Part shown: in pieces, positions 14,660 through 43,238 of the stretch | How positions within the stretch are numbered: position 1 is the first letter of the stretch | Layout: each line of letters begins with the position of its first letter | From: Patescibacteria group bacterium | GTDB taxonomy: Bacteria; Patescibacteriota; Minisyncoccia; Phycocordibacterales; GCA-2747955 | DNA: 64,000 nt | Direction of reading: 5' to 3' | Assembly: GCA_048538215.1 (NCBI GenBank) | Contig: JBLYPV010000001.1 | Span: forward strand, 11,495-75,494 | Translations under genes and position numbers: made by a program | The notes under the pieces: generated by a model | Told to the model about the DNA's origin: nothing | The model's input: only the letters and a program-made list of their open reading frames with translations | Databases searched by the model: none

Positions 14660-14662
14660 TAT

Positions 14663-18171: not shown

Positions 18172-18191
18172 TTGTGTAGCTTCTTTATATA

Positions 18192-18228: not shown

Positions 18229-18249
18229 TTTAATAGACAGCACCACCAC

Positions 18250-23822: not shown

Positions 23823-24611
23823 TTATCTCTGTGCTACTACCTGAGAGTGATGAGCAAAGTATTCTTGGTATACACGCTGAGTACGGCGAATGGTAAACTG
23901 ATCGGGATTAGTATGGTGATAGCGATAGTAGGCGGTAATTCCTGCTTCGTCATCTCCTGCTAAGAATTGGCGGAAGTAATCGGTGCCTCGTTCATAATCT
24001 TGCTCAATAATATTGATTATCATCAATACAGCCTGACGATTATAGGCTACATCATAGATGGCCTGAGGATTATAGTAGAGGTGCACACTCCAACGAGGAA
24101 TGGCGCCAATATCATAACGCCTATAGTAGTTGATGAGTCGATTATGGGCTGTTTGTATTGATTCGTCTTTAAATTGAAAGTATGACATTGCTCCAGATTG
24201 GTTGTACGCACGAGAATTCATCTCACTTTCAATTTGAGCTACCATATCAATATACGTATCGGTACGCTTTGCCCAAGCGTCACCTGTAATACGATGACGA
24301 GATACTTCATTAAGGATAATATTTCGCAGTGCTGGATCCCAATCTTCAGGAATAGTAACAGAAGCTCCATCTGATTGTGGATTGGTGGTATATGCCCAAG
24401 CAGAGGTGGGGGTATAGAGCAGAGTCGGGGCGATTAGTATTCCTAGAGCTAATATGCCTAAACAAACGCGTACACGCAAATAGCGCTTAATTTGGTGTAT
24501 TTTGTCTGCTTTTGAAGCAAGAGAAAAAAATCCAATATGCGGGCCATCTGGCCCCAGGGGTATCGGCACATCACCTGCATCAGGTGATGAGCTATGTGAC
24601 ACATGAGTCAT
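23823..24611 (-). CDS. Membrane-anchored SLT-domain (lytic transglycosylase-like) protein, paralog
   Basis: IESEMNSRAYNQSGAMSYFQF motif. It shares the C-terminal …YY..HHTNPD… region with the adjacent gene. Confidence 0.45.
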   Translation of the reverse strand: MTHVSHSSSPDAGDVPIPLGPDGPHIGFFSLASKADKIHQIKRYLRVRVCLGILALGILIAPTLLYTPTSAWAYTTNPQSDGASVTIPEDWDPALRNIILNEVSRHRITGDAWAKRTDTYIDMVAQIESEMNSRAYNQSGAMSYFQFKDESIQTAHNRLINYYRRYDIGAIPRWSVHLYYNPQAIYDVAYNRQAVLMIINIIEQDYERGTDYFRQFLAGDDEAGITAYYRYHHTNPDQFTIRRTQRVYQEYFAHHSQVVAQR

Positions 24612-27568: not shown

Positions 27569-28714
27569 TTAGGCAAAATAAGCACGCATTTTTATCCATA
27601 TATTGCGTAGAATTTTTGTGAGGAAATTACGCTTTTGGACTCGCTCAAGCTCAAGAGCATTGATAGCCACTCCGTATACACTTGACCAAGCAATTTCTCG
27701 CTCATCTTGCTCTTTCCGATAAGCACGCACTACTGCTCGACGAGTAGGGATTTTGAGAGTATCTTTGGCAATCTGCTCAATTCCTTGTACGAGTGCTCCA
27801 CCACCGCAGAGAATTGCTCCGCCAGGCAAATTTCCTTTTTTATTAATATTTTTGAGCTGGACATTGATTTTACGAAAAAGTTCTTGACAGTTTTTATTTA
27901 TAATTTTATTGAGTCGAGCCAGAGTGAGTGATTCTGGTAGGGGCCCACCTTTTTTAATAAGCTCCGCTTCTGAGAGAGAAATTTGGAGCTCAAGAGCAAT
28001 GGCTTGGGTGAGGTCATCACTACCGCTGTCTAGATAGCCAATGTAAACTGGCTTATCCTGCTCGTAGACAATAAAAGAAGTGGTATCACTTCCAATGTCT
28101 ATTAATACACATCCCACTCTTCGATCAATAGTATTGAGTGAAACAATACTGGATCCTACCACCGCTGGGAAAAAATGGGCCACAGATACATCTAAGGTAT
28201 CGAGCACATCTTCGATTGCGTCCATATTTTGGCTTGCGTAATTGAAAAGCATTACAGAAACCTCCAATTTTTTACCCTGCATACCAATGGGCTCGGATAT
28301 GGTTTCTTTGCCGTCGAGCTTGTAGCCCAAGATAATTTTATCTATATTTCGTTCGTTGGTGCCTAAAGATCGATGAATTGATCGCCTGGTAGCATTTTCG
28401 ATGTCAACTTCTGTGACGTAGCCATTTCCATGACTTACCGCCACGGTAGACGATGCAATCTTTGTGCTAAGGGGGCTTCCTCCTGCGGTAATATGTAATT
28501 CCTCGATAGTTTGCCCTAATTGTTTTTCAGTAAGGCGAAGTGCCTTTTTTATCGCTATGGTTGCCTCAGACTTATTTGTGAGATAGCCCGCTCGGATTCC
28601 TTGGGATGACGCATCTGCACGGGCTTGTAAAACAATACGCCCGTCGGATACTTCACCAGCAACAACTCGGATGGTGTTACTTCCAATATCAATAGCGGCA
28701 ATGGGATGGGACAT
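27569..28714 (-). CDS. ftsA: Cell division protein FtsA (actin-like ATPase)
   Basis: N-terminal AAIDIGSNTIRVVAGE and overall ASKHA-fold similarity to FtsA/PilM. Confidence 0.7.
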   Translation of the reverse strand: MSHPIAAIDIGSNTIRVVAGEVSDGRIVLQARADASSQGIRAGYLTNKSEATIAIKKALRLTEKQLGQTIEELHITAGGSPLSTKIASSTVAVSHGNGYVTEVDIENATRRSIHRSLGTNERNIDKIILGYKLDGKETISEPIGMQGKKLEVSVMLFNYASQNMDAIEDVLDTLDVSVAHFFPAVVGSSIVSLNTIDRRVGCVLIDIGSDTTSFIVYEQDKPVYIGYLDSGSDDLTQAIALELQISLSEAELIKKGGPLPESLTLARLNKIINKNCQELFRKINVQLKNINKKGNLPGGAILCGGGALVQGIEQIAKDTLKIPTRRAVVRAYRKEQDEREIAWSSVYGVAINALELERVQKRNFLTKILRNIWIKMRAYFA

Positions 28715-30371: not shown

Positions 30372-30998
30372 TTATGTGTTTGATTGATCAGGTACAGCAT
30401 CACCCTGTCGGTATCGCCCTGGCATAAGATCAATCTTATTCAAAGGGAATAAACGGAGTACCGGCTCTCCGCGGATGTTGTCTATGTTAAGTGGCCCCCA
30501 TGATCGTGAATCGAAGCTATCAATCCGATTGTCACCCATCATAAAATATTCGTCATCATCAAGCTCCATAAGAGTAGTGCCTAGAGTGCGACTTGATGCG
30601 TAGGGCTCTTCGAGTAGTATTTCTTCATGATCCTCACTTTGTGCATACACATGACCATCATGGATGGAAATGGTTTCTCCGGGTAAGCCAATTACTCGTT
30701 TAATATAAAATTTATCTTCTTCTACAGGTGAGCGAAATACCAAAACATCACCACGATCAATTGACCCAAGCTTGTATTCAAATTTATTAATAATGAGATA
30801 GTGTCCGGTGGCATAAGTATCAGCCATTGAAACACCAGTTACAATGTAGGGCTCAGCCACAAAGTAGCGTATAGGAAGAACTACCAAGAGTACAATCAAG
30901 GCAAAGTCTAAAAGCTCGCGTGTCCAACTGCGAGGCTTGGGGGGTGTATTTTTGTCTTCTTCTGCCATAGGCTTTGAGCTTTGAGTACCGCGAAACAT
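30372..30998 (-). CDS. lepB: Signal peptidase I
   Basis: Catalytic Ser box (VTGVSMADTY), Lys box, GDNR…S.DSR. Confidence 0.85.
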   Translation of the reverse strand: MFRGTQSSKPMAEEDKNTPPKPRSWTRELLDFALIVLLVVLPIRYFVAEPYIVTGVSMADTYATGHYLIINKFEYKLGSIDRGDVLVFRSPVEEDKFYIKRVIGLPGETISIHDGHVYAQSEDHEEILLEEPYASSRTLGTTLMELDDDEYFMMGDNRIDSFDSRSWGPLNIDNIRGEPVLRLFPLNKIDLMPGRYRQGDAVPDQSNT

Positions 30999-31752: not shown

Positions 31753-32295
31753 ATGCAATTCTCTAATCCTGATCAAATTCTTGCAAATGTAGGCATCTCT
31801 CCTGGGTCAGTAGTAGTAGATTTTGGGGCCGGAAGTGGATTCTATAGTATAGCAGCCGCACGACTCGTGGGCTCTGGTGGTCGAGTGTATGCTATCGATA
31901 TTCAACACGCCTTACTTGAGCGCCTCAAAGAAGCTGCACATAGTGAAGGGCTCTCTCAGCTTGATACGGTATGGGGGGACATCGAGACTTATGGCGGTAC
32001 TCGTCTGCGTGATGGTACTGCTGATGTGGTCATTTGTGCAAATATTCTTTTCCAGCTTGAAAATCGAAGGGCTGGGATAGATGAAGCCAAACGGCTCTTG
32101 CATCCAAGTGGTCGGATGCTTGTCATTGATTGGGATGATAGCCATTTTGGTATGGGCCCAGATCCATCACTAATCATTACTAGAGATGAGGCGGTGGAGC
32201 TATTGGAGTCACAAGGTTTAGTAGTCGAATCGGACACACCCGCAGGGGATCATCACTGGGGGCTTATCCTACGCCACGCACATAATACTGTATGA
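31753..32295 (+). CDS. Class I SAM-dependent methyltransferase (180 aa)
   Basis: Motif I VVDFGAGSGFYS and a Methyltransf_11-like layout. Confidence 0.6.
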   Translation: MQFSNPDQILANVGISPGSVVVDFGAGSGFYSIAAARLVGSGGRVYAIDIQHALLERLKEAAHSEGLSQLDTVWGDIETYGGTRLRDGTADVVICANILFQLENRRAGIDEAKRLLHPSGRMLVIDWDDSHFGMGPDPSLIITRDEAVELLESQGLVVESDTPAGDHHWGLILRHAHNTV

Positions 32296-33608
32296 ATACA
32301 AACAAACGATTTTCTATCTTCCAAATAGCTATGATAGCCATCTTTGGCTTACTTGCTCTTGCGGGAGTGGTAGCATTTGCCACCTATCGAGCTCCCGAGC
32401 CGGCTTCGATGATAGGTAAGGTGGATATTTGGGGCACCTATGATGCAGATATGTTTAATCGCTACTTACGAGAGCTCAAAGAGCAAGATGAATCGCTCAA
32501 GAAAGTATCCTATCGTGAGCTTGATCCCTCAGATTTTAGACAAGATGTATTAGAGGCAATGGCGAGTGGAAATTCTCCTGATTTACTTTTTATCCCTGAG
32601 TACGTCCTGTATCCATATCTCGACAAGATAGTGACCATCCCCTCAAGTTCGTATTCTCGTAGTGATTTTATTAATAATTTTGTAGATGCAAGTGAGATTT
32701 ATTTTCAAAATGATGGAATCGTGGGACTGCCATTAGCAGTGGATCCCTTGGTGGTCTATTGGAATAGAGATATCTTTGCTTCAGCTGGGGTGCCACGCCC
32801 GCCATCAAGCTGGACAGAATATTTTTCTCTCGCTCAAAAGCTTTCTCAGGTAGATGAGAGCTTGAGTATCAAGCAGTCGGCTATTGCTCTGGGAGAAAGT
32901 GATAATATCAATTATTTTCGTGAAATTATGGCTACTTTGATTCTTCAAATTGGTAACCCAATTATTAGCCGAGACGAAGATGGTAGATTGCGAGCACAGC
33001 TTGAGGGAGATCGTGATACAGAGTCGGCTCAAGCGGCTGTTCGATTCTTTACTGAGTTTTCAAATGCATCCAAGGCAGCCTACTCTTGGAATCGCTCTAT
33101 GCCTACAAGTAGAGATGCTTTTTTGGCAGGTGATTTGGCAATCTATCTAGCTCCTATCTCGGATATATTTTCTATACGTGTTGCTAATCCTAATCTTAAT
33201 TTTGCTATTGCTGAGATCCCATCAGTGGATACCACCATTTCTCGTCGCAAGGCAGTGTACGCTACTTTGTATGGATTTGTCATTCCGAAAGTATCAGACA
33301 ATAGAGGCGGGGCTTATCAAGCAGCTATAGCACTAACAAGTGATCAAGGAGTGCGTACATTTACCGGAATCACTGGTCTAGGCCCTGCTCGACGAGATCA
33401 AACAGCTGAAAGCTCGGAGGAGGCTTATCGTGATATTGTGAAGAGAGAAGCGCTCTATGCTCAGACCTTTCTCGATCCTCAGTATCAAAGTACCCAGCAA
33501 GTATTAGCCGATATGGTGGAGTATGTGACGAGTGGACAGCGATCAATCAGCAATGCCTTATATGTGTCCAACGCAGCCTTACGGACGGTAATTAATAATG
33601 CAAAGTAA
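32292..33608 (+). CDS. Membrane-anchored extracellular solute-binding protein (ABC-type, family 1)
   Basis: N-terminal TM anchor, then an SBP_bac_1-like core (…DLLFIPEYVLYPYLDKIV…AVDPLVVYWNRDIF…). No permease or ATPase gene is adjacent. Confidence 0.55.
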   Translation: MNTNKRFSIFQIAMIAIFGLLALAGVVAFATYRAPEPASMIGKVDIWGTYDADMFNRYLRELKEQDESLKKVSYRELDPSDFRQDVLEAMASGNSPDLLFIPEYVLYPYLDKIVTIPSSSYSRSDFINNFVDASEIYFQNDGIVGLPLAVDPLVVYWNRDIFASAGVPRPPSSWTEYFSLAQKLSQVDESLSIKQSAIALGESDNINYFREIMATLILQIGNPIISRDEDGRLRAQLEGDRDTESAQAAVRFFTEFSNASKAAYSWNRSMPTSRDAFLAGDLAIYLAPISDIFSIRVANPNLNFAIAEIPSVDTTISRRKAVYATLYGFVIPKVSDNRGGAYQAAIALTSDQGVRTFTGITGLGPARRDQTAESSEEAYRDIVKREALYAQTFLDPQYQSTQQVLADMVEYVTSGQRSISNALYVSNAALRTVINNAK

Positions 33609-35157
33609 TATGAAAATTATGAATAATCAAAAAATAGCAATTTTACACCATAATAAGTATTTATTTTTGATTAATAATTACTTATTATTATCTATAGCGC
33701 TTATGGTAATGGTATCTATCGTTGCGTTACCAAAAAGTTTATACGCAGATGTCTCTTCAGAAAATACTACGAATCAGGAGGTTGATTATCATGAGGTGGT
33801 TCCCGCATTAGATGATTACTTTTGGTCTTGGGATATTTTACCGAGTGAGGTTGATAAAGATGACCTGGATACATTTCTAGAAAATGGGATCTCTGGAGAT
33901 CAAATCGGAGTTGTCAAGAAACAATTATTGCCTATTAAGCCAGCTTCATATACGGGTACTCTAACGTCATATATGATGAGTCAGTGTTTATTAGAAAAGT
34001 CTCAATATCCCTCTGCTGGAAATTGTTATATAGCTTGCACAAGAACAGCAACTGATAGTGATTGGGTGTCTGGATCACAGTGCGAAGGGAAGTCTCCGAA
34101 AGGGTATTATTTTTTTTATGTTGAATCATTAGGATCAAGAGTCGTAGTAGAAGATACATTAATTGGACAGGCGGGAGCGAATCTTGCATCTTATATTATA
34201 GATAATGAAGTTGAGGCAAAATGTTTTAAAGACGATTTAAGTACTGGTAAAACTGCTCGTGAGCAATGCGAAGAAGCTATGGCTCCTTATAAAGACTGGA
34301 TTCCAGAAACTACAAATTCAATGAGTGATAATTTCGCTGGCACTGGTTGGGATTGGTTTGATAATCTCACTACAATTGTAAGACCATTTTCAAGCTCAGT
34401 TTCTTTTCGGTGTACTGAATTGGGCGAAGATAATTTTTTTAATAATTACGATGTTGGAGATTATTGCTTTAATTATGCAGCTAGAAATTCTGATGCACGT
34501 ATTGATATTAATGTGGGCACAGGAGATACCTGCTTTTATAGCGAAGATAGATGTATTCTTACAGTGGCGACTGCATATGCAGGACTAGTTATTGTAAATG
34601 AAGACGGAGAGGAAATCCCAGTTAACCGTACAATTAGAAATTCAGATTATTGTCGAGCAGATAAAGACGATGCAGGCAGGGAGGTATATTGTATGAATGA
34701 CAGGGGTATTCCTATCCAGAATGCAAATCCGATCAATGAAGCATTATACCAAGACCAGTATGAACAGTGGCAAGCTCAAGTGCAAGCACATACTGCTGCT
34801 GTGGACGCCTATGAGGCTGCTGGTACTCAAGCCTTAAAGGAAGCGGGAGCATTAGTGCCGTGTATGGGGACCGATTGTGGGTGGAAGGAGCTCATTGATT
34901 TAATTAATCGAATTATTCGCTTTATGATCACTATCGCAGCTGTATTGCTAGTGCTTATGATTATCTATGCAGGATTCCAGCTCGTAAGTGCTCGAGGAAA
35001 TGCAGCGGCTCTCACAAAAGCTAAAAGTGCTCTCTGGAAGGCGATTGCAGGCTTTGTTTTAGTGCTCACCGCCTGGCTGATTGTGAATGCGGTAGTGAGC
35101 TTGATTCTCAAAGATGAATTTAAAGATGATCCGAATGTGAATATCTTGAAGAATTAG
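33598..35157 (+). CDS. Large secreted Cys-rich protein (≥24 Cys) with a C-terminal two-helix TrbC/VirB2-like pilin module
   Basis: An N-terminal signal/TM is followed by a ~380-aa Cys-rich ectodomain. The last ~80 aa (IIRFMITIAAVLLVLMIIYAGFQLVSARGNAAALTKAKSALWKAIAGFVLVLTAWLIVNAVVSLIL) have the same helix-loop-helix layout as the six downstream small proteins. Confidence 0.6.
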   Translation: MQSNMKIMNNQKIAILHHNKYLFLINNYLLLSIALMVMVSIVALPKSLYADVSSENTTNQEVDYHEVVPALDDYFWSWDILPSEVDKDDLDTFLENGISGDQIGVVKKQLLPIKPASYTGTLTSYMMSQCLLEKSQYPSAGNCYIACTRTATDSDWVSGSQCEGKSPKGYYFFYVESLGSRVVVEDTLIGQAGANLASYIIDNEVEAKCFKDDLSTGKTAREQCEEAMAPYKDWIPETTNSMSDNFAGTGWDWFDNLTTIVRPFSSSVSFRCTELGEDNFFNNYDVGDYCFNYAARNSDARIDINVGTGDTCFYSEDRCILTVATAYAGLVIVNEDGEEIPVNRTIRNSDYCRADKDDAGREVYCMNDRGIPIQNANPINEALYQDQYEQWQAQVQAHTAAVDAYEAAGTQALKEAGALVPCMGTDCGWKELIDLINRIIRFMITIAAVLLVLMIIYAGFQLVSARGNAAALTKAKSALWKAIAGFVLVLTAWLIVNAVVSLILKDEFKDDPNVNILKN

Positions 35158-35211
35158 AGCTTTGTTGAAATCTCTATGACAGCTTTATAAAAGAGTGATA
35201 CACTACTAATT

Positions 35212-35583
35212 ATGAAATACTTATCCTTGCTCGTTAGTCGATCAAAATATACCGCCCTACTATTTTTCTTGTCTGTTGCTTTAGTGCATGCAGAAGGAGG
35301 AGACGGTACACTCATCAATCCTTTGGCTGGTGATATGACACTGATGCAATTTGTCACCTTTTTGGTGCGTGATGTTTTGGTAGGGATAATTGCTCCTATT
35401 GTACTCACCCTTGCGCTTCTTTATACTGGCTTTATGTTTATCTCCGCTCAAGGAAATCCTAGCAAACTCCAAGATGCTCAGCGTAATTTTGTTTATGTCA
35501 TCGTGGGAGGAATTTTACTTCTCGGAGCATATGTGATTCTTGCGGTGATTACCAATACGGTCGATCAGCTCACGGTAAATTAA
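35212..35583 (+). CDS. TrbC/VirB2-like pilin candidate 1 (Sec signal peptide + two hydrophobic helices)
   Basis: Signal peptide …ALVHA|EGG. The mature ~95 aa has two TM helices split by a short polar loop (YTGFMFISAQGNPSK) and a WG/GxxxG-rich helix 2. This is the VirB2/TrbC architecture. Confidence 0.55.
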   Translation: MKYLSLLVSRSKYTALLFFLSVALVHAEGGDGTLINPLAGDMTLMQFVTFLVRDVLVGIIAPIVLTLALLYTGFMFISAQGNPSKLQDAQRNFVYVIVGGILLLGAYVILAVITNTVDQLTVN

Positions 35584-35593
35584 TGATTATTGT

Positions 35594-35890
35594 ATGCGTA
35601 CATTATATTACTTCATACTTCTAACACTTCCTACTCTAGCTTTTGCTCAAACTTTCAAGAGCTTGGTAGATGATCTTGTTTTTATCATCAATGCCTCCAT
35701 CGGAATAATAGTGGCTTTGTCTGTAGCAGTATTTTTTTACGGGATGGCAATGTATGTGTTTCGTATGGGATCAGGATCTACTGAGGGTCATACAGGTGGC
35801 TATAATTTGATGATGTGGGGGATTTTGATTTTTTTCGTGATGGCCTCAGTGTGGGGGATTGTCAATTTGGTAGCTGGAAGCTTTTTCTAA
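35594..35890 (+). CDS. TrbC/VirB2-like pilin candidate 2
   Basis: Signal peptide …LAFA|QT. FFYGMAMYVFRMGSGS loop; LMMWG…SVWGIVNL in helix 2. Confidence 0.55.
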   Translation: MRTLYYFILLTLPTLAFAQTFKSLVDDLVFIINASIGIIVALSVAVFFYGMAMYVFRMGSGSTEGHTGGYNLMMWGILIFFVMASVWGIVNLVAGSFF

Positions 35891-35909
35891 AGAAATAGAT
35901 AATACTAGT

Positions 35910-36281
35910 ATGAAATATGCACCTAAAATTACTATCTATTCGATGCTCGTCCTCGGAGGCACTATACCTCACCTAGCCTATGGGTATAGAATAGACAATG
36001 TATATTCTTTGTTTATTCTTCTTGATTATCTGATAGTACTGGCAGTGCAAATTGCTTTTGCGCTGGCGGTGGTGGCTTTTTTCTATGGATTGGCTCTCTA
36101 TATTTTTAAGTCAGGCAATCATAGTGCTAATGCGCAGGGGATTCGACTTATGCTCTGGGGGGTCGTGGCACTTTTTGTGATGGTTTCAATTTGGGGGATA
36201 GTGATAATCCTACAAGATTCTTTTGGAGTGGATAATAGAGATACACCACGCTACCCCCAGCTACACATCAGGGGGCGCTAA
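35910..36281 (+). CDS. TrbC/VirB2-like pilin candidate 3
   Basis: Same architecture. FFYGLALYIFKSGNHS loop; LMLWGVVALFVMVSIWGIV. Confidence 0.55.
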   Translation: MKYAPKITIYSMLVLGGTIPHLAYGYRIDNVYSLFILLDYLIVLAVQIAFALAVVAFFYGLALYIFKSGNHSANAQGIRLMLWGVVALFVMVSIWGIVIILQDSFGVDNRDTPRYPQLHIRGR

Positions 36282-36415
36282 CTTTATCTAAAGGGACAAG
36301 ACGATGTGCATTTGTCCCAATGATACTTGTGGATAGCGCACTTCCACTTCAAGGAGAGCTTGGTATGATACAAATATACTTATAAATATAGTAGATAACA
36401 ATAAATGATAACAAT

Positions 36416-36772
36416 ATGAAACAAATAGTAATTTCAGGCCTTGCCTTAGCTCTACCTTTTCTTGCTTTAGCACAAAATGCTGAAGGGAAAGGCCTTGGTG
36501 GAGTACTTGATAGCATTGGAAAATTGCTCGATCTCGCCATCGGCCTCCTCTTTGCTCTCGCCGTCCTCGCCTTTTTCTACGGCTTGGCAATCTACATATT
36601 CAAATCAGGAAAAGAGAAGCAGGAAGGAATCAATATTATGGTAATGGGCACCATTGCACTTTTTGTAATGGCTTCTATTTACGGTATTATTGGATTGCTA
36701 CAGAATAGCTTTGAGGTGACAGGGAGTGAAGAAATAGGTCTCCCTGATCCTACTCTAGGAATAGGAAATTAA
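36416..36772 (+). CDS. TrbC/VirB2-like pilin candidate 4
   Basis: Signal peptide …LALA|QNA. Its core is identical at the DNA level over ~161 bp to candidate 5. Confidence 0.6.
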   Translation: MKQIVISGLALALPFLALAQNAEGKGLGGVLDSIGKLLDLAIGLLFALAVLAFFYGLAIYIFKSGKEKQEGINIMVMGTIALFVMASIYGIIGLLQNSFEVTGSEEIGLPDPTLGIGN

Positions 36773-36816
36773 TTACTTCTTTTAATTTTTAATAAAATAC
36801 GATAATATTCACATAT

Positions 36817-37164
36817 ATGAAATATACAACACTCGGAATTATAAGTTTGGTCGTTCCTTTTTTGGCTTTTGCTCAAGCTAACGGAAGTAGTAATCTTGAA
36901 GGGCTTCTCAAGAGTATAGGAGGATTACTTGATACTGCCATCGGCCTCCTCTTTGCTCTCGCCGTCCTCGCCTTTTTCTACGGCTTGGCAATCTACATAT
37001 TCAAATCAGGAAAAGACAAGCAGGAGGGAATCAATATTATGGTAATGGGCACCATTGCACTTTTTGTAATGGCTTCTATTTACGGTATTATTGGATTATT
37101 GCAAGATAGTTTTAATGTCAAAAAAGATGGTAGCGAAATTACGCTACCTAAAGCACCTAAGTAA
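36817..37164 (+). CDS. TrbC/VirB2-like pilin candidate 5
   Basis: Signal peptide …LAFA|QA. The core 36937-37097 is identical to 36536-36696 apart from one E/D change. Confidence 0.6.
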   Translation: MKYTTLGIISLVVPFLAFAQANGSSNLEGLLKSIGGLLDTAIGLLFALAVLAFFYGLAIYIFKSGKDKQEGINIMVMGTIALFVMASIYGIIGLLQDSFNVKKDGSEITLPKAPK

Positions 37165-37270
37165 ATAGTTAGAAAATCTTATTAGGGTATCATTATAGAT
37201 AAGATTTTATTTTATAAATTAAAATAAAGGATGTTCTTATGTGCCATTGAGATATCAGCAAATCATTTTT

Positions 37271-37615
37271 ATGAAATACCACACAGCATTTCTATTTTTC
37301 TTACCCGCGGTAGTTTTTGCTGATGCCATCACTATTGATCAAGGCGTGATTCAATTAATTAATAATTTTATAAACGCCATCATCAATCCAATGATTGTCT
37401 TATTGATAGCGGCGGCGCTCTTGCTATTTTTATGGGGGCTATTACGACTCATGATAGATCTATCAAATGGAGGAAAGGGAGAGGAGGGGAAGCGGCATAT
37501 GCTATGGGGGCTTGTGGGCTTGATTGTTATGATTAGTGTTTGGGGGATTATTAATCTCATCGCCAATTCAATCGGAGCAGAAGTATCACAAATAGACGCT
37601 TCTGATAATTTTTAG
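37271..37615 (+). CDS. TrbC/VirB2-like pilin candidate 6 (start probably at MKYHTAFL; the ORF track starts at 37241)
   Basis: Signal peptide …VVFA|DA. Two helices with a charged loop (SNGGKGEEGKRH); MLWGLVGLIVMISVWGIINL. Confidence 0.5.
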   Translation: MKYHTAFLFFLPAVVFADAITIDQGVIQLINNFINAIINPMIVLLIAAALLLFLWGLLRLMIDLSNGGKGEEGKRHMLWGLVGLIVMISVWGIINLIANSIGAEVSQIDASDNF

Positions 37616-37807
37616 CTTATTATTCTAGCTATTCATTTTATTCTGATGGTGTAGCTAAATAGCTCAAAATGGAGTTGCCTATACTACAATATGGTGAATA
37701 TGGCTATTGCCTGGGCTACTAATATTTTCTCAATACTGCTCCAGATTAAGGTTTTCCCCATAAAATAACTTGGTGGCTCTATCTAAGCAGGATATAATCA
37801 AGCTAAT

Positions 37808-38380
37808 ATGAAAAGTACCGGCATCGGAGCTTCATTTATTCCCAAGGAGGAAGTACGAGCAAAAGGATCACGCCACACCCCTCTCGCTTCTAATCTATTT
37901 TTATTGATTGGGATTGTGGTATTCCTTGCAGCTCTTTTGGCTTCACTTGGAATCTTTTTGTGGCACGGACAGCTCGAATCAGCCAATGCTCGTGCCCTGC
38001 AAACTCTTGAGAAAAACCGTGAGAATTACGGCATCTCTGCTATTGAGGAATTTATTGATATTAATAATCGTATTCAAGCTGCAGACCAAATTCTCTCCCA
38101 GCATATCTCTGTAGCTCCCATCTTTGCTATGCTGGAGCTTGATACCCTTACGGATATATATCTTCAAGATTTTAGCTTTACCACTGAGGGGAATGAGGTT
38201 TTGATATCTGCTCGAGGATTTGCCCCTACCTATGCTCATGTGGCTTTGCAGGCAGATCAGTATAGTGACAATAATCTTATTAAGGATTTAATTCTATCAG
38301 GGGTGAATCAGGCCCGAGAAGGTGGCATCCAATTTGATGTGAGCTTTGTGGTCGATCGAGATATTTTAATCGTAAATTAA
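37808..38380 (+). CDS. PilN-like bitopic membrane protein (TM + coiled coil + alpha/beta domain)
   Basis: A short cytoplasmic N-terminus and one TM (LFLLIGIVVFLAALLASLGIFLW) are followed by a periplasmic coiled coil. Its size and topology fit the PilN/GspL-periplasmic class. The assignment rests on architecture only. Confidence 0.4.
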   Translation: MKSTGIGASFIPKEEVRAKGSRHTPLASNLFLLIGIVVFLAALLASLGIFLWHGQLESANARALQTLEKNRENYGISAIEEFIDINNRIQAADQILSQHISVAPIFAMLELDTLTDIYLQDFSFTTEGNEVLISARGFAPTYAHVALQADQYSDNNLIKDLILSGVNQAREGGIQFDVSFVVDRDILIVN

Positions 38381-38386
38381 TATTAT

Positions 38387-38941
38387 ATGCAATTAATCGC
38401 TCCCATTATTCTCATACTTATCTCTGGCGGTCTCTTTGTGACTTGGATTGACCCTCAATACCAAGAAATCAAAGATCTACAGCTCGAAAAAGCTCGATAT
38501 GACGAAGCACTTGATCGAGTGGTAGAAATCCGTGAGGCACGAAATCAGATTCAATCACGCTACAATACAATTGAAGACCAAGATTTAGATCGACTGGGTA
38601 AGATGATACCTTCGCATATTGATAATATTCGTTTGATTCTTGATGTAAATAGTGTAGCCAATGCCCGGCAAATGACTATCCGTGATATTAGGATTAACCT
38701 TAATGAAGATAGTTCACCAGGAGCTAAAATATCTGTTGGCAACCAAGGCGCACACAAGAGTGTAGGCTTTCGTTTTACGGTAGTCACTACCTATGAAAAT
38801 TTCAAGAAATTTCTTGATGACTTAGCTCTTTCATTGCGTATTATCGATGTAGAATCGGTTGAGATTAGTAGTATTCAAGATGAAACCAGCTTTTATCGTT
38901 TCGATGTGGGTATCCGTACCTACTGGCTTCCCCAAGAGTAA
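38387..38941 (+). CDS. PilO-like bitopic membrane protein
   Basis: An N-terminal TM is followed by a coiled coil (QYQEIKDLQLEKARYDEALDRVVEIREARNQ) and a ferredoxin-like C-terminus. The assignment rests on architecture only. Confidence 0.4.
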   Translation: MQLIAPIILILISGGLFVTWIDPQYQEIKDLQLEKARYDEALDRVVEIREARNQIQSRYNTIEDQDLDRLGKMIPSHIDNIRLILDVNSVANARQMTIRDIRINLNEDSSPGAKISVGNQGAHKSVGFRFTVVTTYENFKKFLDDLALSLRIIDVESVEISSIQDETSFYRFDVGIRTYWLPQE

Positions 38942-38953
38942 TAAATACACATT

Positions 38954-39385
38954 ATGAATCAAATCAAACAACTCGTATCTCAATACAAAAATATCCTTAT
39001 CGGTGGGGTGGTGGTCGTTGGTGTGTTAGTTGGCTATAATATTTTTTATCTTACCCCTAAAAAAGAAGCTCAGCAGGCGGGGGCGATACGATCAGAAAAT
39101 CAAAACCTTATCTCTAGCGAGATTGGTCGCGAGATTGTGGCTACTCTTAATCGTCTTAAAAGCTTGAATATCGATCCAGATTTCTTTCTTGAAGAGCGAT
39201 TCCAGCGCTTAATGGATTTCTCTGTAGAAATCAAAGAGCAACCAGTGGGTAAAAATAATCCCTTTAGCCGGGTTAATTTAATTGGGAGTGCTCAAGCTGA
39301 AGTAGAGGGAGTGTCTGCACTTGAAGACGCAGTAGAAGTCAATCCTGATACAGATACGCCGGATCTTTCAGGTCCTGGTATCTAA
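38954..39385 (+). CDS. Small bitopic membrane protein of the pilus cluster (PilP-like?)
   Basis: N-terminal TM, a 143-aa acidic C-terminus. Confidence 0.3.
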   Translation: MNQIKQLVSQYKNILIGGVVVVGVLVGYNIFYLTPKKEAQQAGAIRSENQNLISSEIGREIVATLNRLKSLNIDPDFFLEERFQRLMDFSVEIKEQPVGKNNPFSRVNLIGSAQAEVEGVSALEDAVEVNPDTDTPDLSGPGI

Positions 39386-39439
39386 GGGGAGGATGAGAGC
39401 TTGTTGGCTATATGCCAAGATATAACTATATAATAAGAT

Positions 39440-41164
39440 ATGTCACTTGTTTCATACTTAGTACAAGAAAGAATAATAGATGAAATGGATGCTACGCGTA
39501 TCGAAGAAGATGCACAAACAAAAGGTAGCTCTATTGATGAGGCGGTAATTGATGCTGGGGTAGATCCAGATGTGCTTTTTACTGCTAAACAAAAATTTTT
39601 TTCTGACTACGAAGTACGTTATCAGGAGAGTAAGGATATGGTGCCACCAGAAGTGCTTGAATATGTGCCAGAAAATTCTGCTCGGCTCTATGGCTTTGTG
39701 CCTCTAGCAATACGCGATGGAGATATACTCGAAGTAGGTATTCTTGACCCAGATAATCTATCTGCCAAATCTGCTCTCGAATTTATCGCCGGGGCGGAAG
39801 GGATTTCTTATGAACTATATCTTATCTCTTATGATTATTATAGTTTTATTATTGAAAATTATTCAGGGCTTAAAGGTGAGGTACAAGAAGCACTGGGGGC
39901 ACTTGAAGCAGAACAGCAATCATATGCAGCTAAGGTTTCAAAAAGAAAAAATTACCAAGATATTGACGAAACAGAGCGAATTACTGAAGATGCTCCTATT
40001 ACCAAGATAGTATCTAATATTCTCAAGCATGCCGCTGAGACTCGTACCTCTGATGTACACATTGAGCCACTTAGTGGACAAACAGATGTTCGCTATCGTA
40101 TAGATGGCTTACTCCAAAAGGATCTCACTCTCCCTAAAAGTATTCATGAAGCTGTCATAGCTCGCATTAAAATACTTTCAAAGATTAAATTAGATGAGAA
40201 GCGTATTCCGCAAGATGGTCGTTTTTCAGCTAAATTACTAGGGCGAAAAATTGATTTTCGTGTTTCTACTTTTCCTACGTATTATGGAGAGAAATGTGTG
40301 ATGCGTTTGTTGGAATCAGATCGAGGGACACTTAATATTCATGAGCTGGGGCTCGTGGGTGAAAATGCAGAAAAAATGAAGCGAATCATTACAAAGCCCT
40401 ATGGAATTATTCTTGTTTGTGGCCCCACTGGATCGGGTAAAACTACTTCTCTATATTCATTCCTTGATGAGCTTGATAAGCAAACAGTAAATGTAGTGTC
40501 ACTCGAAAATCCAATTGAAATGAATATTGAGGGTGTATCACAATCACAAGTGCGTCCTGATATCGGCTATACTTTTGCCAATGGTTTGCGATCGGTCTTG
40601 CGTCAAGACCCCGACATTATTATGGTCGGTGAAATTCGTGATACCGAGACAGCTCAATTGGCTATCCAAGCAGCGCTTACTGGGCATCTTGTTTTTTCTA
40701 CCATTCACACCAACACAGCATCCGATGTAGTGCAACGATTAGTTGATATGGGGGTAGAGCAGTATTTGATAGGACCAACTATCGTAGCAGCAATTGGGCA
40801 ACGATTGGTGCGTACCATTGCCCCCAACTCAGGCAAAGAAGTACCAATGAGCCCAGCGGTACGAGAGATGATTCGGCATCAAATTTCTGATTTACCAAAA
40901 GAGGTACAAGCACAATTTACCTCTCAAGATACAATGTATGAGGCTGTGCCAAGCGATGCCTATCCCACAGGAGAGAGTGGACGAATTGGCGTATTTGAAA
41001 TTCTCGAAATGAATCCAGAGCTCGAACGCTTGGTGCTCAAAGATCCAAGTAGTCGGGCTATATATGATGAAGCTCGCAAGCACGGCTTCATCACTTTTAA
41101 AGAAGACGCTATTCTCAAGGCCTTGGAGGGTAGGATTACTTTTGAACAAGTAATGAAACTATAA
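39440..41164 (+). CDS. pilB: Type IV pilus/T2SS assembly ATPase (PilB/GspE family) with an N-terminal GspE_N domain
   Basis: Walker A (VCGPTGSGKTTS), Asp box, His box, Walker B (DIIMVGEIRD), and the N-terminal T2SSE_N-like domain. Confidence 0.85.
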   Translation: MSLVSYLVQERIIDEMDATRIEEDAQTKGSSIDEAVIDAGVDPDVLFTAKQKFFSDYEVRYQESKDMVPPEVLEYVPENSARLYGFVPLAIRDGDILEVGILDPDNLSAKSALEFIAGAEGISYELYLISYDYYSFIIENYSGLKGEVQEALGALEAEQQSYAAKVSKRKNYQDIDETERITEDAPITKIVSNILKHAAETRTSDVHIEPLSGQTDVRYRIDGLLQKDLTLPKSIHEAVIARIKILSKIKLDEKRIPQDGRFSAKLLGRKIDFRVSTFPTYYGEKCVMRLLESDRGTLNIHELGLVGENAEKMKRIITKPYGIILVCGPTGSGKTTSLYSFLDELDKQTVNVVSLENPIEMNIEGVSQSQVRPDIGYTFANGLRSVLRQDPDIIMVGEIRDTETAQLAIQAALTGHLVFSTIHTNTASDVVQRLVDMGVEQYLIGPTIVAAIGQRLVRTIAPNSGKEVPMSPAVREMIRHQISDLPKEVQAQFTSQDTMYEAVPSDAYPTGESGRIGVFEILEMNPELERLVLKDPSSRAIYDEARKHGFITFKEDAILKALEGRITFEQVMKL

Positions 41165-41330
41165 AATCTAGGCATCCTGTCTAATTTTCGATTACGTACA
41201 AATTTACCACTAAGAAGTATACTAGAGTATTAGTTTGCGAGCTACCACCTCACTAGTCACTAGTTTTACCAGCTCGTCTGTCCCCAATATTTTTCTTTAT
41301 TAATTATCACTTCTCTATTACAATACAATT

Positions 41331-42389
41331 ATGGACATGAAAGAAGAGTTGAAAAAATTAATTCAAATTGTCGTCTCAGAAGAGGCATCAGATCTTCATC
41401 TTTCGGAAGGGCGCTATCCTACTATTCGAGTATCTGGAGCGCTCATACCGATTACTAAAAGCCGAGAATTATCTGAAGAAGATTTATCTATACTTTTGAA
41501 TTTAATACTCACCCCTGATCAGCGCGAACGATTTATTGCTAATAAAGAGATGGATTTTGCTTTTGAAGCGGGGGGAGTACGCTTTCGTGGCAATGCTTAC
41601 TATCAACAAGGAGATGTCTCTATCGCCTTACGACAAATTAATAATAAAGTAAGCTCTCTTGAAGAGCTTGGATTGCCTAGCATACTCGAAACATTTGCAA
41701 AAAAAGAACAAGGATTTTTCTTAGTGGTAGGGCCTACTGGGCATGGCAAATCTACTACGCTCGCTACTTTAATTGATATTATCAATCAGAGTCGTACAGA
41801 ACACATCGTGACAATTGAAGACCCAGTTGAATTTTTGTTTGAACAAAAGCAGTCTATTATAGATCAACGAGAAGTAGGATTTGATACAAGGAATTTTTCA
41901 GCAGCACTCAGAAGTGCATTCCGACAAGATATTGATGTTTTGATGATAGGAGAGATGCGTGGCCCAGAGACAATGGAGACGGCCATTACCGCTGCTGAGA
42001 CGGGGCACTTAGTATTCTCCACTCTCCATACTAATACCGCTTCACAGACAATCGATCGTATTATCGATACCTTTAGCGGGGATAAGCAAAAACAAATCCG
42101 TACTCAGCTCTCGAGCTCGCTTATGGGAATTTTTTCTCAACGACTCATTCCTTCGGTATCAGGAGGGCGGGTACCTGCCTACGAGCTTTTGATCAATACT
42201 CCTGCTGTTTCCAATTTGATTCGAGAAGGAAGAATTCATGAGATTGATTCTTTTATTGAGACATCTTCACAACACGGTATGATTTCTCTCAATCGGTCGC
42301 TTGCTACCCTTGTGCGTGAGGGGGAGATTTCAGTAGAAGATGCATATCGTTATTCTCCTCAGAGTAAGAATCTAGATCGCTTGCTCTAA
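41331..42389 (+). CDS. pilT: Twitching-motility/retraction ATPase (PilT family)
   Basis: 352 aa. Walker A (VVGPTGHGKSTT), DVLMIGEMRG, GHLVFSTLHTNTA. Confidence 0.8.
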   Translation: MDMKEELKKLIQIVVSEEASDLHLSEGRYPTIRVSGALIPITKSRELSEEDLSILLNLILTPDQRERFIANKEMDFAFEAGGVRFRGNAYYQQGDVSIALRQINNKVSSLEELGLPSILETFAKKEQGFFLVVGPTGHGKSTTLATLIDIINQSRTEHIVTIEDPVEFLFEQKQSIIDQREVGFDTRNFSAALRSAFRQDIDVLMIGEMRGPETMETAITAAETGHLVFSTLHTNTASQTIDRIIDTFSGDKQKQIRTQLSSSLMGIFSQRLIPSVSGGRVPAYELLINTPAVSNLIREGRIHEIDSFIETSSQHGMISLNRSLATLVREGEISVEDAYRYSPQSKNLDRLL

Positions 42390-42401: not shown

Positions 42402-43238
42402 ATGCTTATTACCAAACAAGACGGTAGCCAAGAGGAGTTTGATCCTCATAAGCTTGATGAATCACTCTTGCGTGCGGGCACAAGCAAGGAAGCTCGAGAA
42501 GAGATTATTGAGCGTATCACAGATGAGATTGAAGAGGGTATGAGCACCACGGTCATTTATCGGAAGGCGTATAAATTACTTGAAAAATATGAAAAACGGC
42601 CAGAGGTAACCTTTCGTTATTCTTTGCGTCGAGCAATTGCTGATTTTGGCCCCTCAGGTTTTCCTTTTGAAAAATTTATAGGCGAAGTATACCGCCTTGA
42701 GGGTTATCAAGTAGAGGTAGGAAAAAAAATTAAGGGCAGATGTGCTACTCACGAGCTAGATATTGTGGGGCACAAAGAAGGTGAGATTTTTACCGCTGAG
42801 CTCAAATTTCATAATAAGCAATCAATCCGTACCGATCTGCAGACCACACTCTATATGCGAGCTCGTTTCGATGACCTTATCGCTATAAATTACTATAAAG
42901 ACACAACTCCACGCTTGGCTATTATTACCAATACTAAATTTACCTCAAGTGCTATTAATTATGGTGAATGTATGGGTATTGAGCTTATTGGGTGGAATTT
43001 TCCTCGCAGAGAGGGGAATCTACATGATGTAATTATGAAAAGTGGTATTCATCCACTAACTTGCTTATCATCACTTAGCAAAAGCCAAAAAAGATATTTC
43101 CTTGAAAAAGGATTAGTGCTTTGCCGTGAATTAGTAGAGAATGACATGCAAGCTCTTCGTGAGGCACGGGGGATTGTGCCGGAATCAAAATTGGGAAAAA
43201 TACGAGAAGAAATAGAGCTTATTCAACAGGCAGTATAG
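42402..43238 (+). CDS. ATP-cone domain fused to a restriction-endonuclease-like (Mrr_cat/PD-(D/E)xK) domain
   Basis: N-terminal ITKQDGSQEEFDPHKLDESLLRAG…EEIIERITDEIE matches the ATP-cone (NrdR/RNR N-terminal) pattern. The central FEKFIGEVYRLEGYQVEV…HELDIVGHKEGEIFTAELKF resembles the Mrr-type endonuclease core. Confidence 0.5.
   Translation: MLITKQDGSQEEFDPHKLDESLLRAGTSKEAREEIIERITDEIEEGMSTTVIYRKAYKLLEKYEKRPEVTFRYSLRRAIADFGPSGFPFEKFIGEVYRLEGYQVEVGKKIKGRCATHELDIVGHKEGEIFTAELKFHNKQSIRTDLQTTLYMRARFDDLIAINYYKDTTPRLAIITNTKFTSSAINYGECMGIELIGWNFPRREGNLHDVIMKSGIHPLTCLSSLSKSQKRYFLEKGLVLCRELVENDMQALREARGIVPESKLGKIREEIELIQQAV

Follow-up and report, generated by a model that had tools for sequence, protein, structure and literature searches.

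Do secreted pilins of the VirB2/TrbC type serve here as subunits of a filament driven by a type IV pilus (T4P) motor, or do two systems merely lie side by side? The question is raised by a 64,000-nucleotide stretch of a Patescibacteria genome (hereafter the window), in which a tandem array of seven pilin-like genes is directly followed by T4P genes. The original prediction described the array as wired to this motor, with the juxtaposition of two systems as its alternative. Our best reading is that the array probably encodes Sec-exported pilins of a patescibacterial type IV secretion system (T4SS) specified elsewhere in the genome, juxtaposed with an independent T4P module.

All seven array ORFs are present and co-oriented on the plus strand, at 33598–37615 of the window (the position classes A–D are those proposed below):

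33598–35157, plus strand: 519-aa protein; class A, first-position pilin; PF18895 36.3 bits (cutoff 26.6), residues 434–499
35212–35583, plus strand: pil2, 123 aa; class B, second-position TrbC-like pilin; motif YTGFMFISAQGN
35594–35890, plus strand: pil3, 98 aa; class C, middle pilin, FFYG type
35910–36281, plus strand: pil4, 123 aa; class C, middle pilin; PF18895 23.8 bits, E 4.8e-5
36416–36772, plus strand: pil5, 118 aa; class C, middle pilin; PF18895 21.9 bits
36817–37164, plus strand: pil6, 115 aa; class C, middle pilin; PF18895 16.8 bits, TrbC 16.9 bits
37241–37615, plus strand: pil7, 124 aa; class D, last-position pilin; motif INAIINP...LWG; PF18895 34.7 bits (cutoff 26.6)

In NCBI, pil7 starts at M11 (37271), giving 114 aa, and the 519-aa protein carries the name "pilin". 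Since array orthologues are present in other genomes, these ORFs are real genes rather than chance ORFs. Reading of the seven sequences revealed an N-terminal hydrophobic leader with an AxA-like site in every one (LAFA↓Q, LALA↓Q, VFA↓D, VHA↓E) and two more hydrophobic segments beyond it, which agrees with the predicted layout of a Sec-type signal peptide plus a two-helix hairpin. The proposed loop FFYG(L/M)A(I/M)Y(I/V)F(K/R)(S/M)G is found in pil3–pil6, whereas different versions of it occur in pil2, pil7 and the 519-aa protein.

Profile searches placed these proteins among conjugative pilins. The 519-aa protein and pil7 exceed the curated cutoff of PF18895 (T4SS_pilin), and five of the seven fall below it; below-cutoff matches were obtained for pil2 (23.6 bits), pil4, pil5 and pil6, with E values of 2e-4 or better for the first three, and the pil3 match is weak alone (E 0.68). 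Moreover, pil2 matched PF04956 (TrbC) with 25.2 bits (cutoff 27.9; E 2e-5), a match also present in the source database's precomputed annotation. The family NF045849 ("pilin-like conjugal transfer protein") matched pil7 with 30.4 bits (E 2.2e-7) and four more array proteins more weakly (E 1.4e-4 to 0.028), all five under the 40-bit cutoff; pil5 and pil6 gave no match. None of the seven matched N_methyl in the Pfam search, no other significant family was detected for any of them, matches to PHROG (holin) profiles were zero, and a six-frame motif scan found no class-III leader in the window. The PF18895 and PF04956 matches, together with the missing N_methyl match and class-III leader, uphold the predicted assignment to the VirB2/TrbC type rather than to type IV pilins.

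The PilN/PilO-like, PilB and PilT genes that follow the array are present as described:

37808–38380, plus strand: PilN-like bitopic protein, 190 aa; no Pfam match; one TM segment
38387–38941, plus strand: PilO, 184 aa; PF04350 34.4 bits (cutoff 22)
38954–39385, plus strand: third bitopic T4P-module protein, family unnamed, 143 aa; no Pfam match
39440–41164, plus strand: PilB-type extension ATPase, 574 aa (NCBI name, GspE/PulE family protein); T2SSE 388 bits and MshEN 35 bits (GspE_N-type domain)
41331–42389, plus strand: PilT-type retraction ATPase, 352 aa; T2SSE 163.6 bits

All ORFs of at least 240 aa were Pfam-scanned or read, and no candidate for VirB4, VirB6, VirD4, PilC or PilD emerged in the window, as predicted; PilM is also absent from it. 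An FtsA/PilM-like gene (27569–28714, minus strand) was considered as PilM and rejected, being an FtsA orthologue.

We compared the junction with 80 PilB loci from other species, in which the order PilN-like, PilO, 143-aa protein, PilB, PilT is conserved. Across these loci, 76 ORFs are homologous to the PilN-like protein, a 143-aa homologue lies between PilO and PilB in ~68, PilT follows PilB in nearly all, and PilM (PF11104, 140 bits) stands directly 5' of the PilN-like gene in ~63. In L056, PilC, N_methyl pilins and PilD occur alongside this module. The stretch at 37808–42389 is a typical copy of this Paceibacterial PilM-PilN-PilO-(143-aa protein)-PilB-PilT module, except that it has no pilM in the usual position and lacks PilC, PilD and pilins. 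Judged by these comparisons, the T4P genes after the array form an independent, conserved module; its counterparts in relatives open with pilM and are accompanied by PilC, PilD and class-III pilins of their own.

The array–T4P junction is confined to one narrow lineage, comprising the window, L001 and L165. With a broadened pilin HMM, an array at the pilN junction was found only in L001 among the PilB loci (1–2 of 80 overall). Of 44 homologous arrays for which 1 kb or more could be read downstream (5 kb or more for 25 of them), none had a T4P homologue nearby at a threshold of E 0.01, and L081 and L083 have no T4P genes either. It is highly improbable that the VirB2-like proteins build an unconventional filament which the neighbouring PilB and PilT, with the PilN/PilO-like proteins, extend and retract. 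Such a hybrid would suit the adjacency and co-orientation of the genes in the three genomes that kept the junction, the window's lack of a class-III pilin, PilC, PilD and PilM, and the presence in L056 of a T4SS_pilin-tailed protein encoded between the class-III pilin genes and PilD, within the T4P locus. However, none of the 44 arrays has the junction, its 1–2 occurrences among the other PilB loci are roughly the number that chance placement in 0.6–1 Mb genomes would produce, and the T4P module of the relatives comes with conventional PilM, PilC, PilD and N_methyl pilins. The pilin leaders are of the signal peptidase I type, not the prepilin-peptidase type, and the two gene sets are parted by 192 nt (from pil7 to the PilN-like gene), more than any other intergenic gap of the region. 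Two-helix Sec-dependent pilins are, moreover, assembled by no PilB/PilC platform that we know of. The junction is a local rearrangement in a narrow lineage, at which pilM no longer stands, and is not evidence for a hybrid machine. The claim that the array is wired to the T4P motor is not supported, and comparative genomics supports the juxtaposition of two systems that had been offered as its alternative.

On its other side, the array adjoins two genes:

31753–32295, plus strand: class I SAM-dependent methyltransferase, 180 aa; Pfam Methyltransf_31/11/25
32292–33608, plus strand: membrane-anchored orphan solute-binding protein (SBP), 438 aa; SBP_bac_8 76 bits, SBP_bac_1 48 bits

The SBP is of family 1/8, carbohydrate type, with one N-terminal TM segment. 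Its start overlaps the methyltransferase 3' end by 4 nt, and the SBP gene in turn runs 11 nt into the 519-aa gene. Of 80 metagenomic loci, 74 have a methyltransferase homologue directly 5' of the SBP (median gap 7 nt), and a pilin gene begins no more than 400 nt past the SBP in 66 of 68 SBP loci (median gap 5 nt). Methyltransferase, orphan SBP and pilin array together make up a compact unit that is widely conserved, with the array at its downstream end. No ABC permease was found near the SBP, and no T4SS core gene is conserved near the unit in 80 SBP-linked loci, a single one of which (L135) has a VirD4/TraD-like ATPase adjoining it.

These surroundings would accommodate a different role, in which the array proteins are small, integral, non-filament membrane proteins acting with the SBP and the methyltransferase, for example in a membrane-embedded uptake or sensing complex, and resemble VirB2 through ancestry or hairpin shape only. 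Such a complex would fit a tight, widespread unit with no conserved T4SS core gene nearby and an SBP with no adjoining permease, as well as the fact that most array members score under the Pfam cutoff and that a cleavable leader is missing from most class D orthologues. A fold comparison with solved pilins showed no detectable similarity and is not diagnostic. We nevertheless regard this role as unlikely. GyrA and other housekeeping genes show equally conserved synteny with the unit, so gene order alone is no proof of shared function, and two members pass the curated T4SS_pilin cutoff. Furthermore, outside relatives could be detected only among conjugation pilin-like genes: a tblastn search with pil2 of 7.3 Gb of plasmids gave only two matches, in genes annotated as TrbC/VirB2 or Mbov_0395 pilin-like, one of them ~4 kb upstream of a VirB4-like CD1110 ATPase. 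A homologous array of Saccharibacteria forms part of the T4SS cluster and is essential along with it (PMC10633639).

Pilin arrays of this kind have already been described for Patescibacteria (PMC12102498, PMC10633639, PMC12857230), and the high novelty implied by the array is therefore not warranted. A survey reported 441 VirB2 arrays of 2–11 genes, with ~25% identity, in 383 Patescibacteria assemblies (PMC12102498); it found VirB2-like pilins in 1,948 assemblies also carrying VirB4, with a pilin gene near virB4 in 1,135 of them (PMC12102498, Quinonero-Coronel et al. 2025). The T4SS cluster SEML1_0006-0019 of Southlakia epibionticum ML1 includes an array of six pilins (Wang et al. 2023, PMC10633639) that is essential (PMC10633639; PMC12857230), and the "Sec secreted array" of TM7x is another known example. 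The array papers cited here report no filament of such proteins from any patescibacterium. Like the published arrays, the present one is a chromosomal tandem of small, Sec-dependent, divergent two-helix pilins in a reduced monoderm genome, detected by PF18895 and PF04956, with low internal identity (18–48% for most pairs; the published arrays average 25%). It differs in abutting a T4P module instead of virB4, in coming from a Paceibacteria-type metagenome-assembled genome, whereas published arrays are reported to be most abundant in Microgenomatia and Saccharimonadia, and in sitting within the methyltransferase-SBP-array unit, of which the papers cited here make no mention.

The Mbov_0395/ICE_MMCAP2_0565 family (NF045849) of monoderm conjugative elements likewise consists of small two-helix membrane proteins, and its Pontibacillus plasmid member, clustered with the CD1110 ATPase and a peptidoglycan hydrolase, is a tblastn match of pil2. 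Each of those genes occurs as a single copy within a T4SS cluster, whereas the arrays here are linked to an SBP. With VirB2 (Ti), TrbC (RP4) and TraA (F) of PF04956, the array proteins share a Sec-type leader, two hydrophobic helices and a short polar/basic loop, although pil2 stays below that family's cutoff and the host is a monoderm.

Across genomes, the array is an ordered set of four ancient, position-specific pilin classes: class A, with an additional ectodomain, stands first, the TrbC-like class B comes second, class C fills the middle in variable copy number (four here), and class D comes last. Best cross-array matches of the 519-aa protein are first-position genes in 40 of 47 arrays, those of pil2 second-position genes in 34 of 47, those of pil3 middle-position genes in 39 of 45, and those of pil7 last-position genes in 31 of 47. 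Position is kept by the best cross-array matches in 72% (first), 52% (second), 83% (middle) and 87% (last) of cases. Homologous arrays hold 2–7 genes, and the middle-class copy number differs between genomes. Within the present array, identity rises above the range of most pairs for pil4/pil5 (60%) and pil5/pil6 (73% aa); pil3 is 42–43% identical to pil4–pil6. Nucleotide identity of pil5 and pil6 is ~100% over nt 121–270 and 40–70% at both ends. As originally noted, the variation lies mainly in the mature N-terminus and the C-terminal tail, and the hairpin core is conserved. In solved conjugative pili, the N- and C-terminal ends face the pilus exterior; by analogy, the variable termini of the array proteins may correspond to exterior ends.

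Antigenic or host-range variation has been proposed for the VirB2 paralogues of Bartonella and Anaplasma. Variation by alternative pilins has also been suggested for Patescibacteria arrays (PMC12102498), and the seven genes could accordingly be interchangeable major pilins instead of ordered, specialised subunits. Variable ends around a conserved core, the differing middle-class copy number in arrays of 2–7 genes, and the identical core with diverged ends in pil5/pil6 all speak for this. Yet it seems quite unlikely for the array as a whole: the first, second and last positions each have their own orthologous class even though the SBP is only 34–40% identical across genomes, and the middle class alone behaves as an expandable set. 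An orthologous class of its own at each position across distant genomes fits fixed, distinct roles. Most of the array's divergence reflects ancient position-specific subfunctionalisation, not recent paralogue diversification. The type IV pilus pilin sets (PilA plus PilE/FimU/PilVWX-type) offer an analogy only, having ordered tandem subunit classes, one with a large extra domain; the array differs from them in its fold and in lacking a class-III leader, an N_methyl motif and conserved PilB/PilC/PilD linkage.

Taking the array as pilins of a T4SS encoded elsewhere, we propose a plausible route to a pilus. Each pilin would pass through Sec, lose its leader to signal peptidase I and stay in the membrane as a hairpin of two helices. 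The 33 kb upstream and the 26 kb downstream of the array contain no VirB4, VirB6 or VirD4 gene; a VirB4/VirB6-type (monoderm, MPF-FATA-like) machine elsewhere in the 623-kb genome would extract and polymerise the pilins. Class B or class C would supply the bulk subunit, with classes A and D as low-copy specialised subunits, and class A may display its Cys-rich ectodomain at the surface or tip. The product could be a conjugative-type pilus or a pilus-like conduit used in host-cell contact.

The window also holds a signal peptidase of the class expected to cut Sec-type pilin leaders, which is context and not a proven partner:

30372–30998, minus strand: signal peptidase I (LepB); Peptidase_S26 145.6 bits

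In the 519-aa protein, a signal peptide is followed by a Cys-rich ectodomain of ~380 aa and a long helix, and a VirB2-like hairpin (~429–503) forms the C-terminal part. Its ectodomain is lineage-specific, and 14 Cys are common to this protein and P0011. Neither sequence profile nor fold search detected similarity to solved pilin chains, and a profile search of PDB sequences returned transmembrane-helix noise only. The AF2 model of the ectodomain has a pLDDT of 42 and is unusable; that of mature pil7 (pLDDT 72) is a two-helix hairpin, with helices at 7–48 and 54–88.

The array and its neighbours occupy the following positions.

31753–32295 (+), class I methyltransferase
32292–33608 (+), membrane-anchored solute-binding protein (SBP)
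33598–37615 (+), seven consecutive co-oriented ORFs encoding proteins of 519, 123, 98, 123, 118, 115 and 124 aa; the six small genes are called pil2–pil7 in array order
37808–42389, type IV pilus (T4P) module

The seven array genes are separated by intergenic gaps of 10–134 nt. The proteins match entries of an NCBI MAG exactly (tags from ACKKL4_00215 through 00245 and beyond), and the 519-aa protein is already named "pilin" there. All seven proteins have an N-terminal hydrophobic leader that ends, as read from the sequence, in an AxA-like cleavage site, and alignment and hydropathy place two more hydrophobic segments around a short polar, Lys/Arg-containing loop. Alignment, hydropathy and cleavage sites together describe the Sec-type (signal peptidase I) leader and the two-helix organization of VirB2/TrbC pilins. 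In the 519-aa protein, the signal peptide precedes a ~380-aa ectodomain with 14 conserved Cys residues, and the hairpin module forms the C-terminal 90 residues. AlphaFold2 modelled mature pil7 as two long helices (pLDDT 72); the model of the 519-aa protein, computed from a two-sequence alignment, has a pLDDT of 42. The loop motif FFYG...Y.F(K/R).G, which the original prediction had taken to be conserved across the array, is present in four of the seven proteins (pil3–pil6), and the other three have different but alignable versions. A signal peptidase I gene (30372–30998, −; Peptidase_S26, 145.6 bits) lies ~750 nt upstream of the methyltransferase–SBP–pilin genes; this is the enzyme class expected to process pilin leaders, and the proximity of its gene may be coincidental.

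In family profile searches, PF18895 (T4SS_pilin, cutoff 26.6) was passed by the 519-aa protein (36.3 bits) and pil7 (34.7 bits), and it remained the best match, below cutoff, of pil2 (23.6 bits), pil4 (23.8 bits), pil5 (21.9 bits) and pil6 (16.8 bits). pil3 matched PF18895 at an E value of 0.68 only; it is 42–43% identical to pil4–pil6. NCBIfam NF045849 ("Mbov_0395 family pilin-like conjugal transfer protein") matched five of the seven array proteins. No significant match of the seven to a non-pilin family was obtained in these searches, and a PHROGs scan for holin-like families returned zero matches among the array proteins, so that the concern that a family such as the holins stood behind the small proteins was not borne out. 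A tblastn search of 7.3 Gb of plasmid sequence with pil2 gave two weak matches only (E 0.04 and 0.1), both to genes annotated as TrbC/VirB2 or Mbov_0395 pilin-like; one of these, on a Pontibacillus plasmid, lies ~4 kb upstream of a gene for a VirB4-like CD1110 ATPase. A profile built from the pilin alignment retrieved only GPCRs and other transmembrane-helix noise from the PDB sequences.

Class-III prepilins are recognized by a short basic leader, a cleavage motif of G followed by F/M-T/S-L-I/L-E with the cut between the two, and one N-terminal hydrophobic helix. A six-frame motif scan of the window gave no class-III leader candidate in the region. In the HMM comparison proposed with the original prediction, pil2 came near the cutoff of the TrbC/VirB2 family PF04956 (25.2 against 27.9 bits) and PF07963 (N_methyl) matched none of the seven array proteins; a genuine class-III pilin from L056, a locus with a canonical T4P gene set, scores 38.9 bits. 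The matches to PF18895 and PF04956, together with the absence of a class-III leader and of an N_methyl match, support the assignment of the array proteins to the VirB2/TrbC-type pilins rather than the type IV pilins, as had been argued from the sequence.

Directly after the array come genes for a 190-aa bitopic, PilN-like protein, PilO (PF04350, 34.4 bits), a 143-aa bitopic protein, a PilB-type ATPase (NCBI MFW0870887.1; T2SSE, 388 bits, plus MshEN) and a PilT-type ATPase (T2SSE, 163.6 bits), an arrangement that had been read correctly at the outset. PilB-type and PilT-type T2SSE ATPases with PilO identify 37808–42389 as a T4P module. PilM, PilC, PilD and class-III pilins are absent from the window, and neither VirB4, VirB6 nor VirD4 was found in its 64 kb when the large ORFs were compared with Pfam and read directly; with the six-frame motif scan, this upholds the earlier list of missing VirB4, VirB6, VirD4, PilC and PilD genes. 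One gene was considered as a displaced PilM, the FtsA/PilM-like gene at 27569–28714 (−). It carries an SHS2_FTSA domain and scores 150–159 bits against FtsA-like orthologues versus at most 54 bits against PilM; because this sole FtsA/PilM-like gene of the window is an FtsA orthologue, PilM is absent too.

The original prediction wired the array to this T4P motor and named the juxtaposition of two systems as the alternative. The junction recurs in two genomes of the window's own narrow lineage: L001, the closest relative (PilB 66% identical, fully syntenic with the window), and L165 (pil2 80% identical), the third genome with an array–T4P junction. We examined the closest relatives of PilB from 80 species-level genomes, all of them Paceibacteria/Parcubacteria-type MAGs. 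The order PilN-like, PilO, 143-aa protein, PilB, PilT is kept throughout these loci, and in ~63 of the 80 a ~370-aa PilM (PF11104, 119–140 bits) stands directly upstream of the PilN-like gene. A pilin HMM was built first from the seven paralogues and then from 26 sequences of four arrays, with the same answer. Among the PilB loci, the 26-sequence HMM placed an array upstream of the PilN-like gene in L001 only; elsewhere it found one isolated T4SS_pilin-tailed protein (L056) and one fragment (L023). The array occurs in the PilB neighbourhood of only 1–2 of the 79 loci other than L001. By a rough estimate, random gene placement across 80 genomes of 0.6–1 Mb would put about as many pilin-like genes (two or three) within ~20 kb of PilB as were seen.

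The comparison from the side of the arrays gave a similar picture. Downstream of the array, no homologue of any of the five T4P genes (E ≤0.01) was detected, whether the minimum length of following sequence was set at 1 kb (44 arrays), 2 kb (40), 3 kb (35) or 5 kb (25); in the pilin-homologue loci L081 and L083, unrelated opposite-strand genes come after the array. The conserved association with PilB/PilC/PilD that characterizes type IV pilins is thus missing from the arrays. Within the window, the 192 nt between pil7 and the PilN-like gene are the largest gap of the stretch; a promoter and terminator scan returned counts at shuffle level and was uninformative on array–T4P co-transcription. 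With the junction confined to L001 and L165 beyond the window and none of 44 arrays followed by a T4P homologue, the proposed wiring does not hold up, and a hybrid machine in which a T4P motor drives a VirB2-like filament is very unlikely, its adjacency notwithstanding. Other genomes keep a pilM-headed T4P module and a methyltransferase–SBP–array unit, which favours the alternative of two juxtaposed systems. Judged from gene order across genomes, the adjacency is a lineage-specific rearrangement that set two independent units side by side and parted pilM from the PilN-like gene.

Several features of individual T4P loci were also recorded. In L056, the T4P module is accompanied by PilC, two N_methyl pilins and PilD. 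Between the class-III pilin genes and PilD, this canonical T4P locus (13611–20166) also has a gene for a secreted protein of 445 aa that combines thrombospondin type 3 repeats with a T4SS_pilin/TrbC-like hairpin at its C-terminus; 241-aa ORFs that look transposase-like by eye lie upstream of the pilin genes (14902–15627, −) and between the 445-aa protein and PilD (18596–19321, +). PilB is in two ORFs of 268 and 287 aa in L165 (13815–15484), and another genome (L002, 1949–3655) has breaks in PilB as well as in the PilN-like gene. These splits could reflect sequencing error in low-coverage MAGs, or T4P decay in a lineage in which pilM has been separated. Twelve nucleotides after PilT, a 278-aa protein with an N-terminal ATP-cone as its one assigned part is encoded (42402–43238, +), in the same place as in L001 and L165; a homologue in the SBP-linked locus L116 lies away from any T4P gene.

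Upstream, the array belongs to a conserved compact unit of a class I methyltransferase, a membrane-anchored orphan SBP (SBP_bac_8/1, weakly MalE-like) and then the pilins. A metagenome scan with the SBP as query returned 80 loci at 34–40% identity, and a pilin array lies behind the SBP in 66 of the 68 with enough sequence. Median gaps are 7 nt between methyltransferase and SBP and 5 nt between SBP and pilin, and GyrA is usually just upstream; in the window, the methyltransferase overlaps the SBP gene, which in turn overlaps the 519-aa gene. Across the window (31753–33608), the SBP-linked loci L084–L163, and L081, L083 and L165, the methyltransferase and SBP genes precede the array by overlaps or gaps of a few nucleotides in most cases. 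Because of these overlaps and tiny gaps, co-transcription within the unit is likely. GyrA is equally syntenic with the unit, and conserved order alone is therefore no proof of a joint function of the pilins with the SBP and methyltransferase. No ABC permease was found near the SBP in the window or in the SBP-linked loci.

No T4SS core gene adjoining the unit is conserved among the 80 SBP-linked loci. Large ATPases near these arrays were considered as VirB4 candidates and proved to be housekeeping proteins (FtsH, ClpB, IF-2, ABC, SMC), except for one VirD4/TraD-like protein in L135, the only T4SS-type ATPase adjoining any of the 80 arrays. In this stretch of L135 (2452–9998), the 922-aa coupling-protein ATPase (TIGR03743, 57 bits; NF045973; TraG-D_C) is encoded directly upstream of the unit, and genes for a VWA-domain protein and a reverse transcriptase of group II intron type come before it. 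Since it is a single case, its adjacency counts for no more than the T4P adjacency of the array.

The position of a pilin within its array is itself conserved. In a best-hit analysis across arrays, by which the pilin classes were defined, the best matches held position for first (72%), second (52%), middle (83%) and last (87%) genes; by these matches, the array is therefore a series of four or more old pilin classes in fixed order. The first, class A (the 519-aa protein), has the Cys motif and a variable ectodomain. Class B (pil2) is TrbC-like with the motif Y.GF.F.SAxGN, class C (pil3–pil6) is of the FFYG type and variable in copy number, with four copies in the window, and class D (pil7) has the motif IINP...LWG. 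Class D orthologues elsewhere are mostly without a cleavable leader, which pil7 and a few relatives possess; in most other arrays (L084–L163) the class D pilins are 85–99 aa long and start just before helix 1, with a leader alignment occupancy of 0.09–0.32.

Within each class, conservation is highest in the hairpin core (2.2–3.1 bits per column) and lowest in the mature N-terminus and C-terminal tail (0.6–1.3 bits per column), in agreement with the earlier reading that variation is concentrated in these two parts. Most pairs among the seven are 18–48% identical, with pil4/pil5 at 60% and pil5/pil6 at 73%. At the nucleotide level, pil5 and pil6 are ~100% identical over a 150-nt hairpin core (36536–36685 versus 36937–37086) and 40–70% identical at both ends, comprising the leader and mature N-terminus on one side and the C-terminal tail on the other. 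Such a mosaic suggests either that older paralogues exchanged the core by gene conversion or that the ends change very rapidly. The presence of four orthologous classes, rather than interchangeable paralogues, predicts a heteromeric structure with specialized subunits and qualifies the idea of antigenic variation.

Patescibacteria, which live attached to host cells, represent a substantial part of the diversity of bacteria; in the only patescibacterial species studied genetically, a T4SS with a pilin array and the T4P are both essential. Quinonero-Coronel et al. 2025 (PMC12102498), whose search used PF18895 and PF04956 among other models, reported 1,948 Patescibacteria assemblies in which VirB2-like pilins occur together with VirB4, the pilin gene being near virB4 in 1,135, and 441 arrays of 2–11 pilin genes with a mean identity of ~25%. 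Their arrays are tandem, or have one non-pilin gene between pilin genes, and are of low mutual identity; the seven consecutive genes of the window form such an array, although pil4/pil5 (60%) and pil5/pil6 (73%) exceed the published maximum identity of 54%. In Southlakia epibionticum, Tn-seq found the pilin series inside the T4SS cluster to be essential (Wang et al. 2023, PMC10633639). A 2025 review (PMC12857230) highlights the patescibacterial pilins as the exception among monoderm T4SSs. The T4P of the phylum are a system of their own, with experimental support, that serves motility, adhesion and competence. The array type is thus already published and the window locus is categorically nothing new; the apparent T4P hybrid dissolves on genome comparison. 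Of modest interest as leads are the conserved unit and the pilin classes defined by position. The SBP link and the position-specific classes are without mention in the cited literature on patescibacterial pilin arrays, and the close packing of Paceibacteria arrays with methyltransferase and orphan SBP genes, away from virB4, could, like the ordered pilin classes, be of use to workers on these systems.

Sequence comparison shows family membership, Sec-type leaders, hairpin topology, an operon-like unit and independence from the T4P for the array. Based on what is known of VirB2/TrbC/TraA biogenesis and on data from Saccharibacteria, we propose a plausible route for its products. The pilins would enter the membrane through Sec, lose their leaders to signal peptidase I (LepB, encoded upstream on the opposite strand at 30372–30998), be stored in the membrane and then be polymerized by a VirB4/VirB6-type monoderm T4SS, presumed to be encoded elsewhere in the genome. 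Class B or class C would form the bulk of the structure, and classes A and D would serve as specialized low-copy subunits. A patescibacterial T4SS pilus is not reported as observed in the cited literature. Tentatively, and with some doubt, the methyltransferase, orphan SBP and four-class array might constitute a functional operon, kept across Paceibacteria apart from virB4, that builds a heteromeric conjugative-type pilus of bulk, tip-ectodomain and terminal subunits, with the SBP in the same host-contact or nutrient-capture device.

The window is otherwise ordinary chromosome, with GyrA, LepA, FtsA, HisS, LepB, Pth, ribosomal proteins, Mur ligases and tmRNA/SmpB. Two tandem paralogues (22817–23761, −, and 23823–24611, −) have no Pfam match and share ES(D/E)(W/M)N...(Y/F)(Y/F)Q(Y/F) and a C-terminal YY..HHTNPD; their ES...N...Y(Y/F)Q(Y/F) stretch recalls the catalytic motif of lytic transglycosylases. 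Considered as VirB1-like lytic transglycosylases, they found no support from Pfam or PDB sequences. The tmRNA (Rfam RF00023, 87 bits), which ARAGORN did not report, lies near its partner gene SmpB (5772–6214, −, and 8784–9245, −). At 61–2990 (+), a phosphoketolase (XFP, cut at the window start) and an acetate kinase, with overlapping ends, form a compact phosphoketolase–acetate fermentation pair typical of reduced genomes.
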